A stretch of DNA of 64,000 nucleotides from Massalongia carnosa (GCA_965645245.1 OZ287077.1:62001-126000); one strand, 5' to 3'. Shown: positions 26,211 through 45,174, counted from the first letter of the stretch. The notes: a model not told the origin generated them from the letters alone. Numbers and translations are program-made.

Positions 26211-29200
26211 TGTCAGGCGATTAGGGGTCACATGACCCGCCATGGGTCACATGACCCACGAACCCCTATGAGATATCCCTCAGTTAGCTAGCCTAGACCT
26301 CCCATAGATCAATACACACCACTCCTTTTCACTCATATTCCACATTAGCCCATACAGCCTGATAGTTATGAGCCCGGAGAGCATAGAAGCTTCAATTCCT
26401 ACTCATTGATCTAGTTGAATAAAACCCTCTACCCAAAACGATCCAACAAAACGATCAAAATGGAGGAGACCAACAAAGCAACGATGATCGCCCTAACTCC
26501 CAAGAATTATCATCTATGGATTAGGGAATTACAAGGAATATCCAAGAAAGCGAAGGTATGGCAATATGTGGACCCCAATGGTTCAAAACCGGAGCCCGAA
26601 GAGGGAGAATATCCGGAAGTTTCACAATATCAAGTCCCTATTCAAGCACAGCCAGCAGGTGGAATTGCTTACCCCATTATAGAAGGTGGAGTTGTAATAA
26701 CCACGAAATCGGCTGAGAAATACGGCGATTTATCGGCTGAGCAAAGGGAGGACTATAAAATGGAGATATCAGCCTATAAGATGAAGGAAAAACAGGTGGA
26801 GAAGGTCGCCCAAGGACTCAGAATAGTGGACAATGCACTAAAGAGCTCCGCACGGGCATACATCCCCCCCAATAAGATGGCTTCATCGGTTAGGGAAATA
26901 GTGAAAATTCTGGCTGCAAGATATAAGCGGTCAGATGACCAAGTCATAGAGCAATTGCATGAGCAATTTCTAGCCCTAAAAACCCCGCCCATTAAAGGTA
27001 AAATAGAGGCATGGGTAGCTGATTGGGAGAATATTAAGGGACAAATTGTTGAGCTCAATGTAACGGGCCTATATGGCTCCGAGACCATATTCATCAATGA
27101 ATTTCTCCAATCAGGGAAGAAATGGGCGCCCAATTTCTGTGAAAACTGGGTAATGCAGCATAGGGCTGCTAAGATGACGGTTGAATTTTACGAGAAAACC
27201 AGGGAATATCGTTTAGCCGTGGAACCATTCCTGAATGAGGCAAAATCAACGTCTAGAAATCAAGCTAATGCAGCCTCGCTGCAGGGGCAAATGCAAGACG
27301 AAAATAAAGGTCCGGGGCCTAGCCAATCAAGTCAATGGAATGGCCAATCAAAAGAGGCCAGATTCAAGGATATATAGTGCGTATGTGGGAAAATACACCT
27401 GTTCAGGCTATGCCCATATATTGTCAAATGAGCTCGGCCCCCTGCATGGAAGGAAGATAAAACCGTACGCAATGAAATACGTCAGAAAATTCAGTCAAAA
27501 ATTCAGTTTTTCATGGCTATTAAGAAGGTCACCGACACCAACATACTAGATGGAATAACTGAGGAGTCAGTCAAAAAGAGCTCCCAAAAAGCAGAGAATG
27601 ATCAACATAATCAGGGCAATCACATTGAATTGCCTAGTCAATCCTTCTCGTTTGCGAACGTTACATCTAGGGCAAATAACCCCTTGCATAAAAGCGTCAT
27701 CTTTGACTCTGGATGCGATAACCCTCTGACCTATGATAAATCACGGTTTATAGGAGAGATAACCCCAACTTCGTCAGACATGTGGGTAGACACCCCCGAC
27801 GGGGAGATGAAAATCCATGGTCATGGCACAATGAAGGTAAATGGCCTATTGAATGGCCAGAAAAGGAAGCTATTATTCGAAGAAACAGCTTATATTCCTG
27901 ATTCATCAGTGACGTTGGTTTCGGCCAATAAGTTGAAAAAACGAGGCTTTTTCTGGGATATGTTCACTGATACCCTTATAGTTAAGGAGACAGGGCAACA
28001 AATATGTGAAATAAAGGAGCACTATGGGCTCTCAATCATAGAATATAACCCTGAATCCATAGATATAGGGTTTGCTAACTCAGTGCAGCCACGCGATACG
28101 TCAAAAGCAACTCCATGGAAATGGCATCTTCGCCTCGGTCATTGCCGGCCAGAGGTGATTGACCAGCTAAAGAAGATCGATGAGGTGACAGTTTCAAAAG
28201 ACGTAGGGGGTGAAAACGCACCTAGGACCATTCAATGCGAAACGTGTGCAGTCTCCAAAATGCATAGAGTCATCAATAAAGCTCCGTCAGGGCGTGCCAT
28301 CAAGCCATATCAGGTGCTTCATTTTGACCTAACTATCAATGATAAGGGGTTCGATGGAACGAGCTGTATAGCTCATTTTACGGATGAATTTACCTCATAT
28401 GTATGGGTTTATCCATTGAATGATCATAAGGAAAAGTCCCTATTGCCCATCTTCAAAAGCTTGATCAATCAATGCGATAGAGCTGGCATTTCCATTAATT
28501 CAATGGTAACCACGATTCGCACGGGGCAAGAAACATCAATAGGAAAAGCCCTAGAAGCATGGATCAGTCAGCAAGGCATAGAATGGTCATGGTCAGCAAA
28601 GAATACCCCTGAGCAAAATGGCGTTTCGGAGCGTTTCGGAGCCCTATTAACTGAAAAAGCTCGATGCATCAGGGAATATGCAAAAATGCCAGAAGACCTG
28701 TATCCGGAGTGCTATTTAGCTGCAGCCCATCTGATAAATCGAACCCCTAATAAAGCTCTGGAATGGGACTCCCCATTGGTCAAATTGCAGAAACTGACCA
28801 ATCCGGGTCAATCAGTCAGATACGAGCTGGCTCATCTAAAAGTGTTTGGTTGCAAGGCGTATCCATTGCTAAAAGGGGCCGATGCTCCTCCCAAAAGCAA
28901 CAAGTTGAAACCTAGGGCATTTGTTGGCTATTTGGTTGGCTATGATTCAACCAATATCTTCAGGATATGGAATCCAGAAAAGGGAGATGTCAGCGGTTAT
29001 AGAGACGTCATATTCAACGAAGATGAGCTTTATAGCGCCTATACGTCGAATGAGGAGCTATTGCTAAAGGAGACTGAAAAAGCGAGCTTTATAGAGTTTC
29101 ATGTAGTTGAACCACGCCCCGCATTTCAGGAGATAGATAGTGAGGAAGAAGAATGGCTAGACTTATCAGTCAATAAGCGTATAGAGCAATTGACCATAGA

Positions 29201-31497
29201 AGATAACTCACCTAGTCAGGACGAAATACAGGAGAAAATAACTCCCTCATCAACGCCCATGCAACTGGAAACGCCAATAGAAACACCTGAACCAGATATC
29301 AGCCCTAATGTCTCCATAGATAAAAGAAGGGCCAAAAAGGTGAGGGCATCAACAATTGACCCTCTACAACTCCCGCAAACGGGCCGAACGCCCCTCAATG
29401 TGACGGAAATAGAGCAATCATCAGGAAAAAGGAGCGATAGGATAAATGAGGCAAACGTTATAGAGGGAAAACGTACTAGGAAACCAAACCCTAGATACGC
29501 TGCAAATGGAGCTTGGTCAGCAGAAGAAATGTCGAAATTCCCTCAATTTCATACAGCGTTTATGGCGGGGACGGCGAGAATGACTAATCAGCTCCGAACT
29601 GATGATTTGCCCGACCCCCCATCTCATTGGCGAGCTCTGCTAAGGCATCCCTATGCAGATGAGTTCATGAAAGCAGCTAATGTTGAATGGGAGGCACTTT
29701 TCCACAAAGAAACATGGGAAATAGTTGATCAAGATGAGGCTATACAGCCAATATTGCCCCTCAAATGGGTTTTCACCTATAAGACTGATTCGGACGGCTA
29801 TTTGGCGAAGTTCAAAGCACGTCTAGTGGTTAGAGGTGACCTACAGCAAGATAATGCTCAAGATATTTATGCAGCTACATTAGCCTTCAAGGTGTTTAGG
29901 GCATTAATGGCATTAGTTGCTGCATTCGGGCTGAAAACGAGGCAGATGGACGCTATTAACGCCTTTCTAAACGCTCACAATGACGAGCCTATTTACTGCT
30001 TTTTGCCTGATGGTTTTAAGCTTAGAAAGAAGGTGCTAAAAGTGAAAAAAGCGCTATATGGTCAAAGAAAATCACCCCTTCTATGGCTACGAATGCTAAT
30101 AGGCAAATGCATAGAACTAGGTTTAAAACAGGTGCCAGGCGAACCATGCCTATTCTATACGGAGGGAATCATACTATTCTTCTATGTGGACGACATAGTA
30201 ATGGCGTATCGGCCCGAAAAAGAAGCCGAAGTCGAGGAATATGTGCAACGTTTCATAAAGATGATCGAAATACGGGATATGGGTCCATTAACCTATTTTC
30301 TAGGCGTACGGGTCATTCATAACATAGAAGAAAAGACGATCCACTTGATTCAGGACTCCTATATGAACATATTAGCCAAGGAGTATGACATTGATGAAAA
30401 GTCGGAGGCTAAAACACCTCTAACGCCCATATTCAATGAAGAACTGGCGCCATATGAGGGGGAGGTGGATCCGGCCAGAATGCATCTATATAGGAAGAAA
30501 GTTGGATCAATATGCTACCCAGCTATTATGACTCGGCCAGATATAGCAAAATCAGCTTCAAAATTAGCTGAATATCTGACCAACCCGGGACCTAGTCATA
30601 TGAGGGCTGCAGACCATTGCCTACGTTATCTATATGGGACGAAATATCTGGGAATCCAGTACTCGGCCAAAGGGGGCGGTGAAATCACTACTATGGCAAA
30701 TCATAGACCGGTTCCGGCTAATAAGCAGGTTTTTGAGGCAACGGCTGATGCATCCTATGTAAATAACCCAGATAGGAAAAGCTCCGAGGGCTATACATTC
30801 AAGCTATTTCGTGGGATGATTGACTGGGCCGCTAGGAAGCAACTGACCGTGACCACGTCAACTACTGAGGCCGAGTTATTGTCTATGCTTCATGCGGGTA
30901 AAGAGCTCATATGGTGGATACATCTATTTGAAAAGCTACAATTTAACCCGGATCAAGATATAGTTATCTATAACGATAACCTACAGACAATTCGCATTTT
31001 AACCTCCGAAATGGGAAAAACCGACACTAAATTGAGGCATATAGACGTCGCCCAATGTTGGCTTAGGCAATCTGTGCAAAGGGGGGAATTATGTGTTGAC
31101 TATGTGCCGACCAATCAGATGGTCGCAGATGGTTTAACCAAGATCCTACCTCCTCAAAAGCATCAACATTTCGTCAAGCTATTAGGGCTAGTCAATGCCA
31201 TGGACCTGGTCAACAATCAGAAGAAATTGGCCAATCAGAAGAAGGGAAATACGGCCACAAATTGAATCGGCCAAAATCACTAGAAATCAAGGTAAAAAAT
31301 GGAAATTTTCACTTAATATAGGTTTTTCGGTCATGGCAGCTTTGGTCAAAGCTGGGGGGGTGTGTCAGGCGATTAGGGGTCACATGACCCACGAACCCCT
31401 ATGAGATATCCCTCAGTTAGCTAGCTTAGACCTCCCATAGATCAATACATACCACTCCTTTTCACTCATATTCCACATTAGCCTATACAGCTTGATA
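26211..31497 (+). mobile_element. Full-length Ty1/Copia element E, TG...TA LTRs, TSD GAGAC
   Basis: LTRs 26211-26364 and 31363-31497 (19-bp duplication in the 5' LTR), PBS 26365-26375, poly-G PPT, GAGAC at 26206-26210 and 31498-31502. Confidence 0.96.
26460..31265 (+). pseudogene. Copia E single-frame gag-pol with two in-frame stops near 27375-27431
   Basis: VIFDSGC protease, WHLRLGH, EQNGVSER, FYVDD RT, ADASY RNaseH; gag and the 1250-aa ORF share a frame. Confidence 0.92.
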
Positions 31498-31796
31498 GAG
31501 ACGCACTGGAAACTCGGTCAGCGGTACAGTACTTAAGCTTTTTCAAGATGTAAATACTCGATGGGACTCCACATGTCACATGTTAATTCGAGCGCTCAAG
31601 TTGCGACAAGCGCTGAATAGATATCATGATAAACATGAAGCCGAGTATTTGAGATTGCATTACGTGGAATGGTCACAGATAGAATATCTTATCGATTCAA
31701 CGAAGCTATTCTGCGTCTTCACAAAGATGATTGGTCAATCAAAGCAACCGACCATTTATCAGGTGTTCGAGATCTACAATAAGCTATTCGATCATC

Positions 31797-34381
31797 TGGA
31801 CACACCCCTTCCGGCTATCTAGACACCCTACACAAAATTCTAGGGGTAGGGCTGGACCCCTCCCTAAACCTCATTAGGAAGCCATCTTCCTCGATCAGGA
31901 TAAGTGACGTAAATTCTTCATTTTCTCATCTCAATTTTCAGTTTCCTGATCCTACATTCTGGATCAATCATGCCTCTATTACCTCCCGCCGACAGGCAGT
32001 CTTTCGAAACTCTAGAAGACTGTCTATTCTGCCTGAAACGAAATGCCGGCCCTGAGGGATACGCCGTTGTCCTGCATCGTACCAAGAAATCAAAGCTGGG
32101 AATTCGTCGAAAAGCGTGGATCATCTGCGATCGAGGTCGCAAGGCCAGACCGCAAGGCGAAGAACGATGTCACAGTAGCCGTAGACGAATTGAGTGTCCC
32201 TTATCCTGCATCGCTACCTTCGTGAACGACGTCGCCTGGCATTTGGAAGTAGTCAAACCGGAACATAATCATGAAGCTAGCTTGAGTGGAGCACATCCCG
32301 CGCATCGAAGAATCGCCTTGATTGAGCATAAGGAGGAGATTTCTCGTCAATTGACTGTACAAACCAAACCGGCCAACGTGCTGTCGAGTCTTCGTATTGG
32401 AGATCCGACTCCGAATTCGGTCAGATGGGATGAGAATGGCAATCCTTAAGTCGTCAATCCGATGTTTATCAGTCGAGACATCTACAACTTTCGAGCTCAA
32501 TTGCGACGAAATGCTTTGGGCTCATTGACTCCGATACAGAGTCTGGTTCAGGAGTTTGACAAGGGCGACTGGGTATAGGAGTTGCAGACAAATGATGAGA
32601 ATCAGGTGAGTTTGACAAGGACAGGACAACTGAAATTGCAGACTAATGACGAGAACCAATCAGATCATCAAATTTTTTTTCAGTAAATGCAGTACTCAGA
32701 CTCTTTTGAAGGCAAATCCGGAAGTTTTAGTGATGGATTGCACCTACAAAACCAACAGATTCAAAATGCCTTTGTTGATCATCGGCGGACAGACCGCATT
32801 GCATACTACGTTCTATGTTGCCTTCTGCTTTATGCATGAGGAGACAAATGAGTCTTACATCTGGGCCATGACTCGTTTGAAAGTCTTGTACTCGCAGCTA
32901 GAACTTCCTTCTCCAACGACGACAGTCACCGACATGGATAGAGGTTTGATGTCGGCAATTGAGCTGGTTTTTCCATCTACCAGTCATTTATTGTGTATCT
33001 GGCACATCAATAAGAATGTCCTAGCTCATTGCAAGAAATCATTCAGTACTGAGGCATGGGAAGTCTTTTACGGACGATAGAAATCACTTATTAAGGCTGA
33101 TTCCGAGCAGAATTTTGAAGAGCTGTGGGGACAGTTTCGAATCACATACAACCGTACACATGCTAATTTGGTGAAGTATCTTAATGCCACCTACATTTCT
33201 TTTCGTCAGAGATTTGTAAAGTGCTGGACTGACCGAGTGAGGCATTTCGAGACAACGACTACTTCGCGAGGTGAGGGCGGACATGCTGTATTGAAAAGGC
33301 AGCTGGGAACCTCAAATAGTGACTTAAAAGCAGTCGTAGATGGCCTCGCCTTGCTACTAACCAATGAGCTTCATAATCACCTCATCGCCATAAATTCGGC
33401 TAAGGATCGCTATCCTACCGACTTGCGCAAACCGATTTTCCAACGTTTGGCGAATCGGGTCACCACGTTTGCACTTCGAAAAATTCTTGGTCAGTACAAT
33501 TTGTTGGTTGATCAACCAACGGCGATCAGGGCCTGCACCGAGGTCTTTACTACTGTCACCGGCCTGCCCTGTAGTCACAGAATTCAGGAACGACTGTACG
33601 ATGACGGTGTTTTGTTGTTGGAGGATTTCCATCCTCATTGGAGGTTGGTTTTGATCAAACATTGTTGAATTCAACTAATTCTAAATCTAGATTTGAAAGA
33701 GACCTTCCAGCTGATGATAATGATCCCTTGCTGGCGGTGCAGGATCCCGCTGTCGTGCGACCTCGCGGACGCCCTCGAGGTTCCGAAAACAGAAGATAAC
33801 AAGTCTTTGAAGCTTCCACCCTGCGAGAACCTTCCTTATTCGAACGGATTGAGGCGGAAATAGCTGATCTACAAAGCGGGGAGGTGGCTCCGGACGTGGA
33901 AGCTGTCGTACATCGAGCTGATCCAGCTCCAGGGCGGGGACGCGGGCGGGGGGTACGAGCACGAGGACAGGGACAGCGACAGCGACAGGAATCGGGACAG
34001 GGACAGGAACAGGGACGGGGAAGAGGGCGGAGACGAGGTAGGGCATCTCGGGCAAGGGGCGCTGCTACAAATCAAGAAGGGGCGATACCGAATGAGGTTT
34101 AGTGGCATGAAATCAGAGTCTGATTCATGAAGATGATGCCAATCGACTCCATTTCATCAAGGCAATTGCTGTCCATGAGAGATGTGCACATACTTTTCAA
34201 TTCAAATTTTGAACGTGGGCGAATATTTTCAGTCGCTTATCTTAATGAGGTTTAGGGAGGGGTCCAGCCCTACCCCTAGAATTTTTTTGTGTGGGGTGTC
34301 TAGATAGCCGGAAGGGGTGTGTCTAGGTAGCCGGAGAGGGTGTGTCTAGGTAGCGGATGGGGTGTCCATATATCAGTACCC
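31797..34381 (+). mobile_element. Mutator-like element 1 (degenerate; outer part of left TIR missing)
   Basis: Inverted repeats ~31797-31880 and ~34240-34381 with internal tagacacacc subrepeats; right end resembles the MULE-2 terminus. Confidence 0.88.
31970..34102 (+). pseudogene. MULE transposase with nonsense codons; introns 32606-32663 and ~33644-33689
   Basis: FAR1-like N-terminus, VMDCTYKTN, TDMDRGL, LCIWH, TTSRGEGGH, GLPCSH; colinear with the MULE-2 protein. Confidence 0.9.
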
Positions 34382-34469: not shown

Positions 34470-36469
34470 CCGCGGCGTAGATCAGTATGATAGAGTAGAT
34501 AAAGCAAGCCGTCCTATGGTGAGTATGCTTGATAGTTCTTGTTTCAAAGTGCTCTTTTTAAACGAGCTCTTAGACCTCGTCCACGTTTTTAGAGAATTTT
34601 TGTAACAATCTTGCCGACATAGGAATAGATCCAGCTCCTTATGGTACTCATTCATTTCGAAGAGGAGGTGTACAACCTCTTTCGAGTGAAAAACGATGGA
34701 TCATACGCAAATTATGTGATTGGGGTGGATAGTCTCAAAGTTATGATACTTTTATTGGAATTTGCCGAGATACCTGAATAATATTTGCGACCGAGGTTCT
34801 TTTGCCTCCTGCTTACTAATTTCCAGATTAGGCAATCATATGCTATATGCAAAAAGCTTCAGATATCGGCACGACTTCGGCAACTACGAGGAGGCAAATG
34901 TATGCAGCAAGAATGCTACATTTCGGAGGCAATTCAGCTGTTCATGATCACTGAGTGTCTCGGTGTCTCAGGTCAGCAGTGAGGTGTATTTTGCCCAGCT
35001 GAAAAGGTTCAAAGGAAGCAGGTTCATGCATTTGATATAGGCCGAGATGGAGGCCCTCAAGCAGTATAAAGAGACGGTGATTCCCCATGTAATTTAGCTA
35101 TTCAGTCGTTCAGAATTCAGTGCAGCAGATAGCTAAATTTGGAGTATCTTCACTGGAAATACGGAGTACCTGCATCACGTTTGCCAAGCACTTCTCTTTG
35201 CTTATCCTTGATAGCCCTAGACCCTTTTCTCCTGCATCCCGCTGCCGTATGCCTGGTTGATTTTTTGTTCAACAACTTTGACAATCGTTCGTTATTTAAT
35301 GAATTAGAATGACGATCTTACAAGACGACGAGATGATTTCATGAATCCGGGAAGCACAGATCGGAGTTAAATGTTCTTATTGTGGTCGAGCTTGCGATTG
35401 TGCATAAAGAACTTATTAAATACTATTCTAGTTCATGAGCTGGAATAATGAAAACCAGGAGGATTATTTCAATCTGTTCTATAATGATAAAAAGTTAAGA
35501 GCTCATTTAAATAAACTAATTTCACCCGAAATCCTACTCCTCATTATTATCCTCCCCTCCCCCCTCCTCTTCACCCTCCTCTTCACTCCTCTCCTCATCA
35601 TTATCCTCCCCCCCCTCCTCTTCACCCTCCTCCTCACTCCTCTCCTCCTCCTCACCTTCCTCCTCTCTCATCTCCTCATCCTCACTGAAAGGATCGGATG
35701 ACACTTCCTCAAAAAGTGGATCATCACTTTCGCCTAGTTTAGTCAAAAGATCGACAGCATCATCCGCCCTTTCGCCTCTACTAGCTATCTAAATTCGATT
35801 AAAACGAGTTCGTTTATAGTGAGCATGTTCGGTTGATTTACTTTTCTATAAGACCATTCACCCAGTATGGCCTCAAAAAGACGAACACAATGCTCTCGTC
35901 GACCTCCAAGAGTCAACTCCTCTTGCGCCACTTTCTATAAACATTAAATATTAGGTCGAGCTCATATAAAACGAGTATAGATTAACGATTTTACTTTGGT
36001 TTTGGCATTTGAAATGATTTGCTTCTCGAACATCTATTGTTCGACCATAGACGCACCATAAGCACATCCGCAAGGCAAGAGATCAACCTTGTCTAAACCC
36101 AACGGAATATTCTCGCCCTTAGGCATCTCCTGCATTCGTTTTAAACGAGCTCATCAGTAACAGATAGGCCCCGTTTGTGTACAGCGTAGATAGCCGGCTT
36201 CCTCCGGTAATTTTCGACGTTACACCATACACTTTTGGTGGTGTTTTGTCCGCCATGCCGGCATTTTGGGACCAATTGTACGATTCTACTCTTGAGGCCG
36301 TTTTTTTGGGCCATTGGCTCCTACGCGGAGGATTATAACGATATACAGTTCAATTGAAGGAATCGGCGCAATGCGTCAAGTCTCTACGGCGAGTAATGGA
36401 TGGAGCAACTGCTCGATCAGCGCCATACGAATCGATCTACGAAAACCTTCGCATGGATCGCGAGACGAC

Positions 36470-36920
36470 ATCTTCGCTGTCTCTACGTTCGACCTACAGT
36501 TCAGCTACGTTCTTGCTGGATGGGAAGGCTCTGCGCATGATGCGCTAGTCCTTAAGGAGGCCGTCTCCTATCATGGATTGAGGCTTCCTCCAGGGAAGTA
36601 CCTCCTTGCGGACGCTGGATACTCTAATACGGAGCACACCTTGGTGCCGTTTCGGGGCACGAGGTATCATCTCAAGGAGCAGAGGCCGGCTTGAGAAAGG
36701 TAAGATCTATAGTCTATATGGTGCTAATGGTCTATAGGTCCCAATCGTCCAAGGAGCTGTTCAATCTCCGCCACTCCTTTCTCCACAACGTCGTCGAACG
36801 GATCTTTAGGATCTTTAAGAGGAGGTTGAAGATTCTACGGAGCGCTCCTGAGTACCCAATATGGTCTCAGGTTCACCTAATCTACGCTCTGACCGCAATA
36901 AATGACTATATACGGAGGAA
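36470..36920 (+). pseudogene. PIF/Harbinger transposase C-terminal fragment
   Basis: YVLAGWEGSAHD, KYLLADAGY, RYHLKE, ELFNLRH...VVERIF..KRR. Confidence 0.88.
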
Positions 36921-41810: not shown

Positions 41811-42311
41811 GCAAATTAGGTGGCTGATCAGCTGCTGACAGGTGGGAGTGCTGTCAGCCGTGCGGGAATCAATACCACCAATCGAAGCGTGGCCCACCCA
41901 AATTAGTATGGGGCGGTGGCTCAAGTAAAGTTTTTCCGTCCCCGAACTTTGTCGATTTCTCAACCACTCACGTTCAAAATCCACCTCCAACCACCTCCAC
42001 TACCTCCAACCACCTCCAACCACCTCCTCCAACCACCCCCATACCCGAGAAAGCGGCTGTGACAAGCACGAAAACATGACAATGAAGGCCTAGATGCAGG
42101 CTATTTACGCGTGTGCCTCTCAATTGCTCTCGATGCGAAACGTCATCGCTTCGAGGTTGAAAAAGGTCGACGTGACTGCTTTTGCGACAAATCATTTACA
42201 CTGAACTCGGTAAATTAATTACTTAAAAGAATTCAAGATTATTTATCATGATGATAGCACGTAAATGACTGCACTGTCTTTAGAATGCAGTATGAATGTG
42301 GAATAAATAAA

Positions 42312-44972
42312 GAGTACGGATACATGGACACCCCTTTAGTTACCTAGACACTCCCCTGGGTTACCTAGACACCCCCCGATGATACTCAGACACCCCCCTC
42401 CTAGAATAGGTAAAGATTAAGGGTCATGCCCTACCGCTTACCTGCATCGGGGTAGTGAGGGGGCAATTTCTTTGGCACCTGAAAATTTTTCTTTTTTCGA
42501 ATGTTGGCACACGAAATTCTTCTGCCACTTGAACTTCATCTATCCGATGTCGACCTCTCTACCACCTGGTGGACTCGCTCCTCCTGAAGATGGACAAAGC
42601 TTCGAAAGTTTGGAAGACCTCATTCTTCGCGTCAACGAGCATGCCGGCCGTCAAGGATATGCCGTTGTTTTGGGCCGGACCAAGAAGTCGAAACTCAAGA
42701 TGACGAGAAAGGCTTGGCTGGTCTGCGACCGAGGCAGGAAATCCAATGGACCGACTGGTCAGGATCGGCGACATACAAGCAGCAGACGGATTGAGTGCCC
42801 TTTTTCCTGCGTTGCGAAGCGCGAAAATGAGAATGGAATTTGGTTCTTGGAGGTCATCACACCGGGACATAATCATTCTGCCACACTTGCCGGCGCCCAT
42901 CCTGCATTGAGGAAGCTGGCGATGACATCAGAGGTTAAGAGCGAGATCTCTCGAGCGCTGACAGTGCAGACGGCACCTTCTAGAATTCTTTCAAGTCTCA
43001 GAATTCCTGACCCGATGACTGGAGTCAATCACGAAGATCCCGAAGATCCCGTCATCGTCAATCCAATGTTCAAACCTCGAGACATTTACAATGTCAAGGC
43101 GCAGCTACGTCGCGAAGCCCTCGGTCCATTGACTCCCGTTCAGGCATTGATTCGCGAGTTGGATCAAGGAGATTGGGTATACAATGTGCAGAAGAATCAT
43201 CTCAATCAGATCAGTCATTTATTCTTCATAAAGGGCAGTTCTCAAAGAATTCTGAAGACCAATTACGAGGTGTTGGTGATGGACTGCACATACAAAACGA
43301 ATCGCTACAAAATGCCACTTTTGATTATCAGTGGTCAGACGGCATTACATTCCAACTTCTATGTGGCGTTTTGTTTCATGGCCAAAGAAACGACTTCTGA
43401 TTATACATGGGTTCTGCAGCAATTGCAAGCTTTGTATGTGAATTTGGAGCTTCCTACTCCGACGGTTATCGTCACCGACATGGAAAGAGGTCTGATGTCT
43501 GCAATTGAGACTGTTTTGCCTACAACCAATCATCTGCTTTGTCTTTGGCACATTAACAACAATGTCCTAGTCAATTGTAAGAAGCATTTCGATTCCAAAG
43601 AATCTTGGGATCGATTCTTCGCAGATTGGAAGTCAGTGATATACGCATCTTCGGAAACGGAATTTCGGGAGACATGGGAGCGGTTTAGTCTGCAATATCA
43701 GGGAAATTGCATTGAGTATCTGGACTCCACCTATGTCTCTTCTTTTCGGCATCGCTTTGTCAAGTGCTATACCAATACGATCTTGCATTTCGAGACGACA
43801 ACCACCTCTCGCGGAGAAGGCGGGCATGCGGTTCTGAAACGACAGTTGGGATCCTCATCTGGAGATCTCAAGACAGTGGTGGACGGAATCAATTTGCTGC
43901 TGATCAATGAGCTACATAACTATCTGATCAATCTTGATGAGGCTAAAGTACGACTTCCTTTGAGTCTTCGTAAACCAATCTTTCAAGAAGTGGCACCATA
44001 TATCACCCCATACGCCTTGAGAAAGATACTCCCTCAGTATCTTCGACTCATTGAGAGACCAACAGCCCTGCCGGCCTGCACTCAAACCTTCACGCTGACT
44101 ACCGGTCTTCCATGCAGTCACAAGATTCAGCAACGGCTGTATGAGGGTGGCAGATTGTTGATCGAAGATGTGCATTCACATTGGAGGTAGTACTCAACTT
44201 TCTAACTTTCTAGATTGATGAAGCTGACTTGAAATGTAGATTTGATAGAACTCAAGTTCTGCCTCGCGTCGAGATCGATAATCCCCATCTTCTGATTCAA
44301 GAACCAGAAGTTGCAAGAACTCGAGGGCGTCCACAAGGTGCGGGAAATAGAAGACAGCAAGCATTCGACGCATCCACAAATCGAGAACCATCGCTTTTCG
44401 AACGGGCGGAACCGGAGACGCATTTGGCAGTGCATCGAGCGGACTCGGCACCGGGTCGCGGCCGAGGTGGCAGACGAGGTGGCAGACGAGGAAGACGAGG
44501 GGGGGAAGATGAAGTTACACCAAGGACAACGAGGGTAACGAGGACAGCTACGTCCGGGGGGGCAAAGGCAACGACGAAAGGACGGGCACCGGCAGGGCGG
44601 ACAGGTCGGACAGGTCGGCCAAAGAAGAGGACAGCAACGTCAGAACGGGCAACAAGCGAAGAAGATGACTTGATCATTGTAGATAGTCCAAATGAGGTTT
44701 AGCTCGTATCAAATCACTGTCTGGTTTGCAAAGACAGTGCCAATCGACTCCGTTTCAATCATTCTCGATCGGCTGCTAACATTCGAAAAAAGGAAAAAAT
44801 TTCAGGTGCCAAAGAAATTGCCCCCTCACTACCCCGATGCAGGTAAGCGGTAGGGCATGACCCTTAATCTTTACCTATTCTAGGAGGGGGGTGTCTGAGT
44901 ATCATCGGGGGGTGTCTAGGTAACCCAGGGGAGTGTCTAGGTAACTAAAGGGGTGTCCATGTATCCGTACTC
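42312..44972 (+). mobile_element. Intact Mutator-like element 2 (2661 bp), ~190-bp TIRs, 8-bp TSD TAAATAAA
   Basis: GAGTACGGATACATGGACACCC...GGGTGTCCATGTATCCGTACTC; TIRs ~42312-42504 and ~44778-44972; TSD at 42304-42311 and 44973-44980. Confidence 0.96.
42547..44702 (+). CDS. MULE transposase, one intron 44187-44239
   Basis: Uninterrupted FAR1-MULE DDE ORF; the GTAGTA...GCTGAC...TAG intron joins HWR-FD in frame. Confidence 0.92.
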
Positions 44973-45174
44973 TAAATAAATTAACCTAACAATTCAACTC
45001 CAAACATGTCCAAAATTCAACCTTCGTGCTCCATTTCCTATCGAAAAAGACGGTGTAAACACTGGAATCACTGCTGTAAAAACACCCATCACCTCCAAAA
45101 AGTGCGGGAAAATACGAAAAGCAAATGGTTCAACGAAAACCTCAAACAAACTCCAAAAATGCACAAAAAATCAT

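Follow-up and report, generated by a model that had tools for sequence, protein, structure and literature searches.

A short duplicated segment was found in the transposase gene of a Mutator-like element (MULE), here called MULE-1, in a 64,000-nucleotide stretch of Massalongia carnosa DNA (OZ287077.1:62001-126000). This whole stretch is referred to as the window, and positions are counted from its first base. The segment, at 32606-32663, is a tandem duplicate of the adjacent exon, and its likeness to that exon is beyond chance. Our interpretation, to which we give a probability of roughly 0.6, is that the segment is a U2-type spliceosomal intron that was born from this tandem duplication within the MULE transposase family. 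Calling it an intron is partly supported, by the sequence signals it carries and by the open frame that its removal would produce. The host is probably a lichen-forming fungus. The two copies are the following:

32552-32605, + strand: source copy; 18 codons in 54 bases of coding sequence (EFDKGDWV.ELQTNDENQ); the homologous stretch of MULE-2, a second MULE in the window, is also coding
32606-32663, + strand: putative intron 1; 58 bases, phase 0, a diverged tandem copy of 32552-32605

Likeness of the segment to the adjacent exon

The duplication was recognized by a repeat search, which returned two blocks. Bases 32552-32564 are identical to 32608-32620 (13 of 13 bases) at a spacing of 56, and bases 32582-32604 match 32636-32658 at 20 of 23 positions at a spacing of 54. 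The middle part of the second copy is scrambled relative to the first. When the 54-base exon copy and the 58-base segment were aligned globally, the window copy gave 43 matches over 62 columns, 12 of which were gaps. The family's main form, which was assembled from public runs as described below, gave 45 matches over 62 columns, or 45 of the 50 aligned columns. The local score of the exon copy against the segment was 37, and none of 20,000 shuffles attained it (mean 12.7, standard deviation 2.25, maximum 30). Both strands of the 64-kb window were also searched for sequences resembling the segment. The best non-self match was the adjacent upstream copy, with a score of 34, and the next best scored 29. 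Tandem Repeats Finder reported no rows for the 54/58-base repeat, because two short diverged copies with insertions and deletions (indels) score too low.

Splice signals and reading frame

Fungal U2-type introns have the consensus donor GTRNGT and a branch site, CTRAY, shortly before the acceptor. The segment fits this pattern, with a consensus donor, GT..AG ends, a CTRAY branch site, and a frame that is restored collinearly with intron-less homologues. The donor is GTGAGT at 32606-32611, the branch site is CTAAT at 32643-32647, with the branch A lying 17 bases before the segment end, and the acceptor is CAG at 32661-32663. When every 58-base window on both strands was considered, donor, branch site, and acceptor were found together in 1 of 127,884, and that one is the segment itself. 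The product of the separate frequencies of the three signals is 3.3e-6.

The position of the duplicate can be drawn in more than one way. Seven placements of a 58-base deletion are equivalent, and only the placement at 32606-32663 has GT..AG ends. GTGAGT alone among the local candidate donors looks as fungal donors usually do; in the other GT..AG pairs at the segment that would restore the frame, the donors are poor. Upstream of the segment the frame runs from 31913 to 32605 and downstream of it from 32664 to 33665, and the two frames are one base out of register. Deleting the 58 bases unites them, and the resulting joint aligns gap-free with MULE-2 and with P0003, one of the related proteins retrieved by database search.

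The segment in public sequencing runs

Contigs of four public runs from three studies were compared with 31900-34230 at 80% likeness. The runs cover organisms A and B and one lichen metagenome, and the kinds of run are not on record. Run depth was not taken as copy number. The gene to which the contigs were compared is laid out as follows:

31796-34381, + strand: MULE-1 element copy; dead, left terminus truncated by about 57 bases
31970-32605, + strand: MULE-1 exon 1; 212 codons, ATG at 31970, private stops TAA at 32447-32449 and TAG at 32576-32578
32664-33643, + strand: MULE-1 exon 2; MULE DDE domain, private TAG stop at 33078-33080
33644-33690, + strand: MULE-1 intron 2; 47 bases, phase 2, GTTGGT donor, CTAAT branch site, TAG acceptor
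33691-34102, + strand: MULE-1 exon 3; includes the stop codon, private TAA at 33797-33799

The segment is not private to the dead copy in the window. One contig of run X3 (record 11) covers 32408-32806 without a gap, and its eight differences from the window all fall outside the donor, branch site, and acceptor. Another, from run X5 (record 28), covers 32547-32649, also without a gap, and a contig of run X1 (record 1, 31900-32634) retains the start of the segment. The splice signals are unchanged in the run contigs that cover them. None of the five joints listed for the four runs skips the segment, and no intron-less form of MULE-1 was seen among contigs at least 80% alike, with the proviso that contigs can drop rare forms. 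Because the segment is present in contigs of four runs from three studies and is translated in protein P0011, which comes from a separate genome assembly, the idea that the duplication is an assembly or sequencing artefact of the window is refuted; nothing was found in its favor, and we give it practically no credence.

At each of the four premature stops of the window copy, the dominant form in all four runs carries a repaired codon: 32447 T>G (GAA), 32578 G>C (TAC), 33079 A>G (TGG), and 33797 T>C (CAA). At three of the four positions, the repaired codon gives back the MULE-2 residue. A main form of the family was built from 27 of the 40 listed differences, namely those that prevailed as the majority in three or all four runs. 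With the segment and intron 2 removed, this main form is open for 675 codons, as against the four premature stops of the window copy; unspliced, it reaches a stop at codon 239. Going from the window copy to the main form alters 26 exon codons, 23 of them non-synonymously (the 4 stops included) and 3 synonymously. In exons 1 and 2, 13 of 21 amino-acid changes are toward the MULE-2 residue and 2 are away from it, as neutral decay of the window copy predicts. A sequence-only reading of the window had named intact copies lacking the segment as the outcome that would speak against an intron. What was found is an intact-looking main form that retains it in all four runs.

Absence of the segment from related transposases

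The element used for comparison within the window is MULE-2:

42312-44972, + strand: MULE-2 element; comparison copy with the 8-bp target duplication TAAATAAA at 42304-42311 and 44973-44980
42547-44702, + strand: MULE-2 transposase gene; exon 42547-44186, intron 44187-44239, exon 44240-44702

MULE-2 has a 196-nt inverted repeat of 97% identity, and its transposase gene, with the intron removed, is open for 700 codons with no premature stop. Its MULE domain is recognized by Pfam with E=4.8e-27, and its FAR1 match, at 27.3 bits, falls below the cut-off of 28.1. Protein identity between MULE-1 and MULE-2 is 57-69% by piece, or about 50-65% by another estimate. Subterminal repeats of the CTAGACAC type are common to both elements. 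The MULE-2 ORF (open reading frame) at 42421-44190 runs uninterrupted for 589 codons, so there is no intron at the site homologous to 32605/32664.

The two genes do share the second intron. At the motif HW(R), both MULE-1 (33644-33690) and MULE-2 (44187-44239) show a change of frame at a short GT..AG stretch with a CTAAT or CTAAC branch site, and past it their C-terminal parts are again homologous. The ORFs of five relatives (P0004 and P0006-P0009) end exactly at HWR, as does the MULE-2 ORF in the window, which is as expected if they read into intron 2. The transposase gene would thus appear to depend on splicing anyway, through this conserved intron. Three MULE-2-like proteins, P0005, P0080, and P0057, read uninterrupted across the intron 2 site (..HWRFDR..). 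This suggests either that intron 2 was lost in one sub-lineage or that the contigs behind these proteins are RNA-derived.

Further relatives were collected by protein searches in which each half of the window gene served as a query, with X written in place of stops. A tree of 20 rows was made from the two window genes and 18 proteins chosen from the 94 retrieved. In it, P0003 and P0019 are the closest companions of the window copy (100/99), and P0058 joins this group next (96/94). P0003 (..INDENQIVNLFF..), P0019, and P0058 each have a single ORF across the intron 1 site. The intron-bearing lineage is nested among intron-less ones, so the presence of the segment would be the derived state, that is, a gain.

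P0003 is identical to the spliced window reading at 380 of 538 positions, with 158 differences, and its frame is open for 544 residues. Its end, HWRFDHC followed by a stop, resembles the unspliced HWRLVLIKHC and stop of MULE-1, and so it seems to read into intron 2. Because of the open frame and this apparent reading into intron 2, P0003 is probably a genomic and functional sister element in which intron 1 was never present. We also considered whether P0003 is a MULE-1 copy altered by repeat-induced point mutation (RIP). As the whole story this was rejected: 81 of the differences fit C>T/G>A, 19 are the reverse, and 58 are neither. Given these non-RIP differences and the 544-residue open frame, P0003 is not merely a RIP copy.

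Distant metagenome loci served as outgroups only. Of 217 relatives found, 80 were kept, at 30-57% identity (53% for the best match in the scan itself), and none of these 80 is a copy of the MULE-1 family. In 65 of the 80, one alignment spans the site and extends 15 residues or more to either side. The remaining 15 include 3 that are cut by a contig end, 6 that cross with fewer than 15 residues on one side, and 3 that are unresolved. L035, L036, and L080 are continuous at the site and have an intron about 17-18 codons upstream of it. In L036 (935-1025) and L080 (2575-2650), with L035 like L036, this is a GT..AG intron with a CTAAC branch site, and it lies within about 1 codon of the position that corresponds to the 5' edge of the duplicated segment (..LVQ / EFDK..). 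The position may be a coincidence, or the linker may tolerate introns.

These data also bear on whether intron 1 could be ancestral in this MULE group and lost from MULE-2 and the others, with its likeness to the exon a coincidence. Intron loss does occur, as the uninterrupted intron 2 site of P0005, P0080, and P0057 illustrates, and the upstream intron of L035, L036, and L080 lends this idea some further support. Against this, the likeness to the adjacent exon is far past chance, and several exact losses would be needed to explain absence from the three nearest relatives and from 65 of the 80 distant ones. Moreover, P0003 is without intron 1 yet seems to keep intron 2, which is the more 3' of the two; intron loss mediated by complementary DNA usually gives the opposite pattern. 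An ancestral intron is therefore very improbable.

The sequence-only reading had described a diverged copy of the preceding 54 coding bases, with a GTGAGT donor, a branch site, and a CAG acceptor, whose splicing restores the frame in gap-free alignment with a MULE-2 that has no intron there. The repeat blocks and shuffles, the signals themselves, the frames joined by removing 58 bases, and the continuous MULE-2 ORF show that description to be right in every particular. It had also called the segment a recent intron gain. The gain is upheld, as the segment duplicates an exon and is absent from MULE-2 and from the nearest and most of the distant relatives. No date can be put on the word recent, because indel events are about as numerous as substitutions between the copies, and some of these differences may go back to the birth of the duplicate.

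How the intron may have arisen

The proposed origin begins on the MULE-1 family's own branch, where the 54 coding bases would have been duplicated head to tail. A plain 54-base duplicate would stay in frame and would have no donor; its first copy is preceded by CAG and ends in AATCAG. Two extra bases (GT) at the boundary between the copies would have turned CAG/GAGTTT into CAG/GTGAGT and so created the donor. An A-to-T difference, ACAAAT to ACTAAT, would have created the CTRAY-type branch site. Four extra bases in the second copy would lengthen the distance from branch site to acceptor, and the acceptor would be the duplicated AATCAG. The host spliceosome would then remove the segment, which is exactly the extra copy, and restore the ancestral protein (..DENQ/IVNLFF.. 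in the main form). Without splicing, translation of the main form would end after 238 residues and yield only the putative N-terminal DNA-binding part. Since the intron lies in a transposon, each transposition would also spread the new-born intron through the genome.

The differences between the copies were considered as a clock for long purifying selection, and this was rejected on account of about 6 indel events against 5 substitutions. In the 3' half, 2 to 4 differences, depending on the alignment, fall on third codon positions, which is too few for significance.

A further idea is that the duplication made, in one step, a switch controlled by splicing. If so, the spliced form would give a 675-residue transposase and the retained form a putative 238-residue DNA-binding part, and the shorter protein could compete for element ends and damp transposition. 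Intron retention in the Drosophila P element offers a likeness. We regard the switch as doubtful.

Splicing weighed against an unspliced duplication

An alternative explanation is that the segment is a frameshifting duplication that is never spliced, that the family is non-autonomous and is mobilised in trans by MULE-2 or by an intron-less relative of MULE-1, and that the splice signals are due to chance. We consider this account somewhat unlikely, and the following observations weigh in its favor or against a spliced intron. A non-autonomous, unspliced family would look similar in DNA. None of the five runs carrying the element is labelled as RNA (nine runs were returned, from three studies). 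The outermost 23 bases of MULE-1, at the 34331-34381 end, and of MULE-2 (42312-42334) are alike at 18 positions, and given this likeness of terminal motifs, MULE-1 could perhaps be mobilised in trans by the intact transposase of MULE-2. The window copy is itself a pseudogene, and defective copies recur in the family, with 7 member sequences clustered as P0010, which carry the TAA stop of the window copy, and 11 as P0020; defective MULE-1 copies may thus propagate. The main form is approximate, with 79 further differences beyond the 40 listed. The intron-less state of the nearest relatives was read from ORFs alone, and Logan contigs can be RNA-derived.

Two further points on the same side concern the duplicate itself. 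In X1 and X5, about 11-12% of the depth comes from a variant with a 1-base deletion just 3' of the segment (32664-32680), and the same deletion is found in protein P0011. In this variant, the unspliced 58 bases are read through in frame as a 19-residue insertion, with the conserved I(T/V)xLFF motif altered, and a spliced reading would be frameshifted. In addition, about 5 substitutions and about 6 indel events separate the copies. So indel-rich a ratio suggests that part of the difference comes from imperfect duplication at birth. If all of these differences date from birth, the intact flanking frames could reflect a burst of copies soon after the lesion.

Against this account, chance is an improbable source of the signals. 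With the CAG taken as inherited, the probability that the one usable boundary would carry a consensus donor, and that a CTRAY would also be suitably placed, is about 0.0014 x 0.085. The copies differ at few places, and at two of these the difference is precisely what creates a signal, the donor in one case and the branch site in the other. The 675-codon frame of the main form has no other lesion, and the contigs of all four runs, within the limit given above, included none at least 80% alike that lacked the segment. For these reasons, a spliced intron remains our preferred interpretation.

Comparison with known intron gains

As a model for intron gain, tandem duplication is established, and its documented cases are few; they include ATP2A1, two fission-yeast genes, and the potato RdRp gene (PMC4974935), and cases have been described in Drosophila (PMC2891723). 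In the Rogers model, a duplicated AGGT yields both the donor GT and the acceptor AG (PMC4974935). The MULE-1 segment resembles this model and ATP2A1 in that an exonic tandem duplicate is present, one copy is the (here putative) intron, and the peptide is unchanged. It lacks the duplicated AGGT of the model. The MULE-1 boundary is CAG/GAG, the GT opens the second copy and has no counterpart in the first, and the acceptor AG is the part that was duplicated; its branch site, unlike that of the model, is one base off the source copy (PMC4974935). Splicing of ATP2A1/ATP2A2 has been shown experimentally, whereas the MULE-1 case is known from sequence alone (PMC4974935).

Among the fungal cases, the two fission-yeast genes are similar in that an intron spans tandem copies of a short exonic segment. 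They differ in having 24-bp AGGT units in several copies, in host genes, with expressed sequence tag support, whereas MULE-1 has a single 54/58-base pair, lies in a transposon, and is known from DNA (PMC4974935). NCU09740T0-2 of Neurospora tetrasperma is a gained fungal intron that resembles its 5' exon and is attributed to tandem duplication. It is 614 bp long, 100% identical to its source, very recent, and in a host gene; the MULE-1 segment has 58 bases, is diverged, carries changes that create its signals, and has been multiplied in a mobile element (PMC4317165). The potato RdRp gene offers another tandem-duplication gain with an identified source and phylogenetic support. There the duplicated stretch included an existing intron-exon boundary, whose signals it took over, whereas the source in MULE-1 is purely exonic (PMC4974935).

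Two other systems are alike in part. In CACTA transposases, an intron present in one clade of a DNA transposon and absent elsewhere has been read as a gain; the hosts are plants, and no source sequence was identified (PMC4158355). Introner-like elements of Dothideomycetes are a route to recent fungal intron gain, and they form near-identical intron families in many unrelated genes (PMC4457414). The MULE-1 segment has its own exon as its source, and no other look-alike was found in the 64-kb window, where the best score elsewhere was 29 compared to 34-37 for the adjacent copy. Our search of the open-access literature found no source-identified intron gain inside a transposase gene. It found one putative transposase intron gain, that of CACTA, without a known source (PMC4158355).

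Two features are the MULE-1 case's own: a donor and branch site made by small changes in the second copy, and a location in a multi-copy mobile element. Intron gains with a still recognisable source are rare. If splicing is confirmed, this would be a fungal example in which the ancestral state survives in sister elements and in which single small changes, and not a duplicated AGGT, account for the donor and the branch site. The many independently decaying copies, the read-through variant included, would then show the fate of a young intron.

State of the MULE-1 copy

The copy of MULE-1 in the window is a decayed, immobile pseudogene of its family. It is regarded as dead because of its four premature stops (32447, 32576, 33078, and 33797) and its truncated left end. 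Inverted-repeat arms lie at 31796-31879 and 34240-34326, with matching parts of 46 nt (98%) and 42 nt (95%). The right end extends to 34381 and carries a MULE-2-like terminal motif, and the matching outermost ~57 bases are gone on the left. Mutator-like elements make a target-site duplication of about 8-11 bp; that of MULE-1 is unreadable since the left end is missing.

The MULE DDE domain (PF10551) was found in 32634-33077 with E=9.5e-29 and 100.2 bits, well above the Pfam cut-off of 27.6. MULE transposases have an N-terminal DNA-binding domain of the WRKY/FAR1 type. The FAR1/AFT DNA-binding match in exon 1 of MULE-1 is weak, at 21.7 bits, below the Pfam cut-off of 28.1. An arginine/glycine-rich C-terminal coding repeat at 33965-34020 is variable in length between copies. 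At the same place, run X3 shows joints that go back 43 bases and loose ends of GGGACAG-type repeats.

Other transposons in the window

The window is eukaryotic and transposon-rich, and it looks like a nest of transposons. Directly upstream of MULE-1, a Ty1/copia-type polyprotein ORF at 27432-31265 (+ strand) is uninterrupted for 1277 codons and has an RVT_2 match (E=2.6e-33) and integrase and gag-pre-integrase parts. It may be a recently active retrotransposon. A fragment at 31499-31795 (+ strand) that is hAT-like by eye, and without a Pfam match, abuts the truncated left end of MULE-1. Downstream of MULE-1, at 36296-36694 (+ strand), lies a PIF/Harbinger-type DDE_Tnp_4 fragment (E=2.9e-07).

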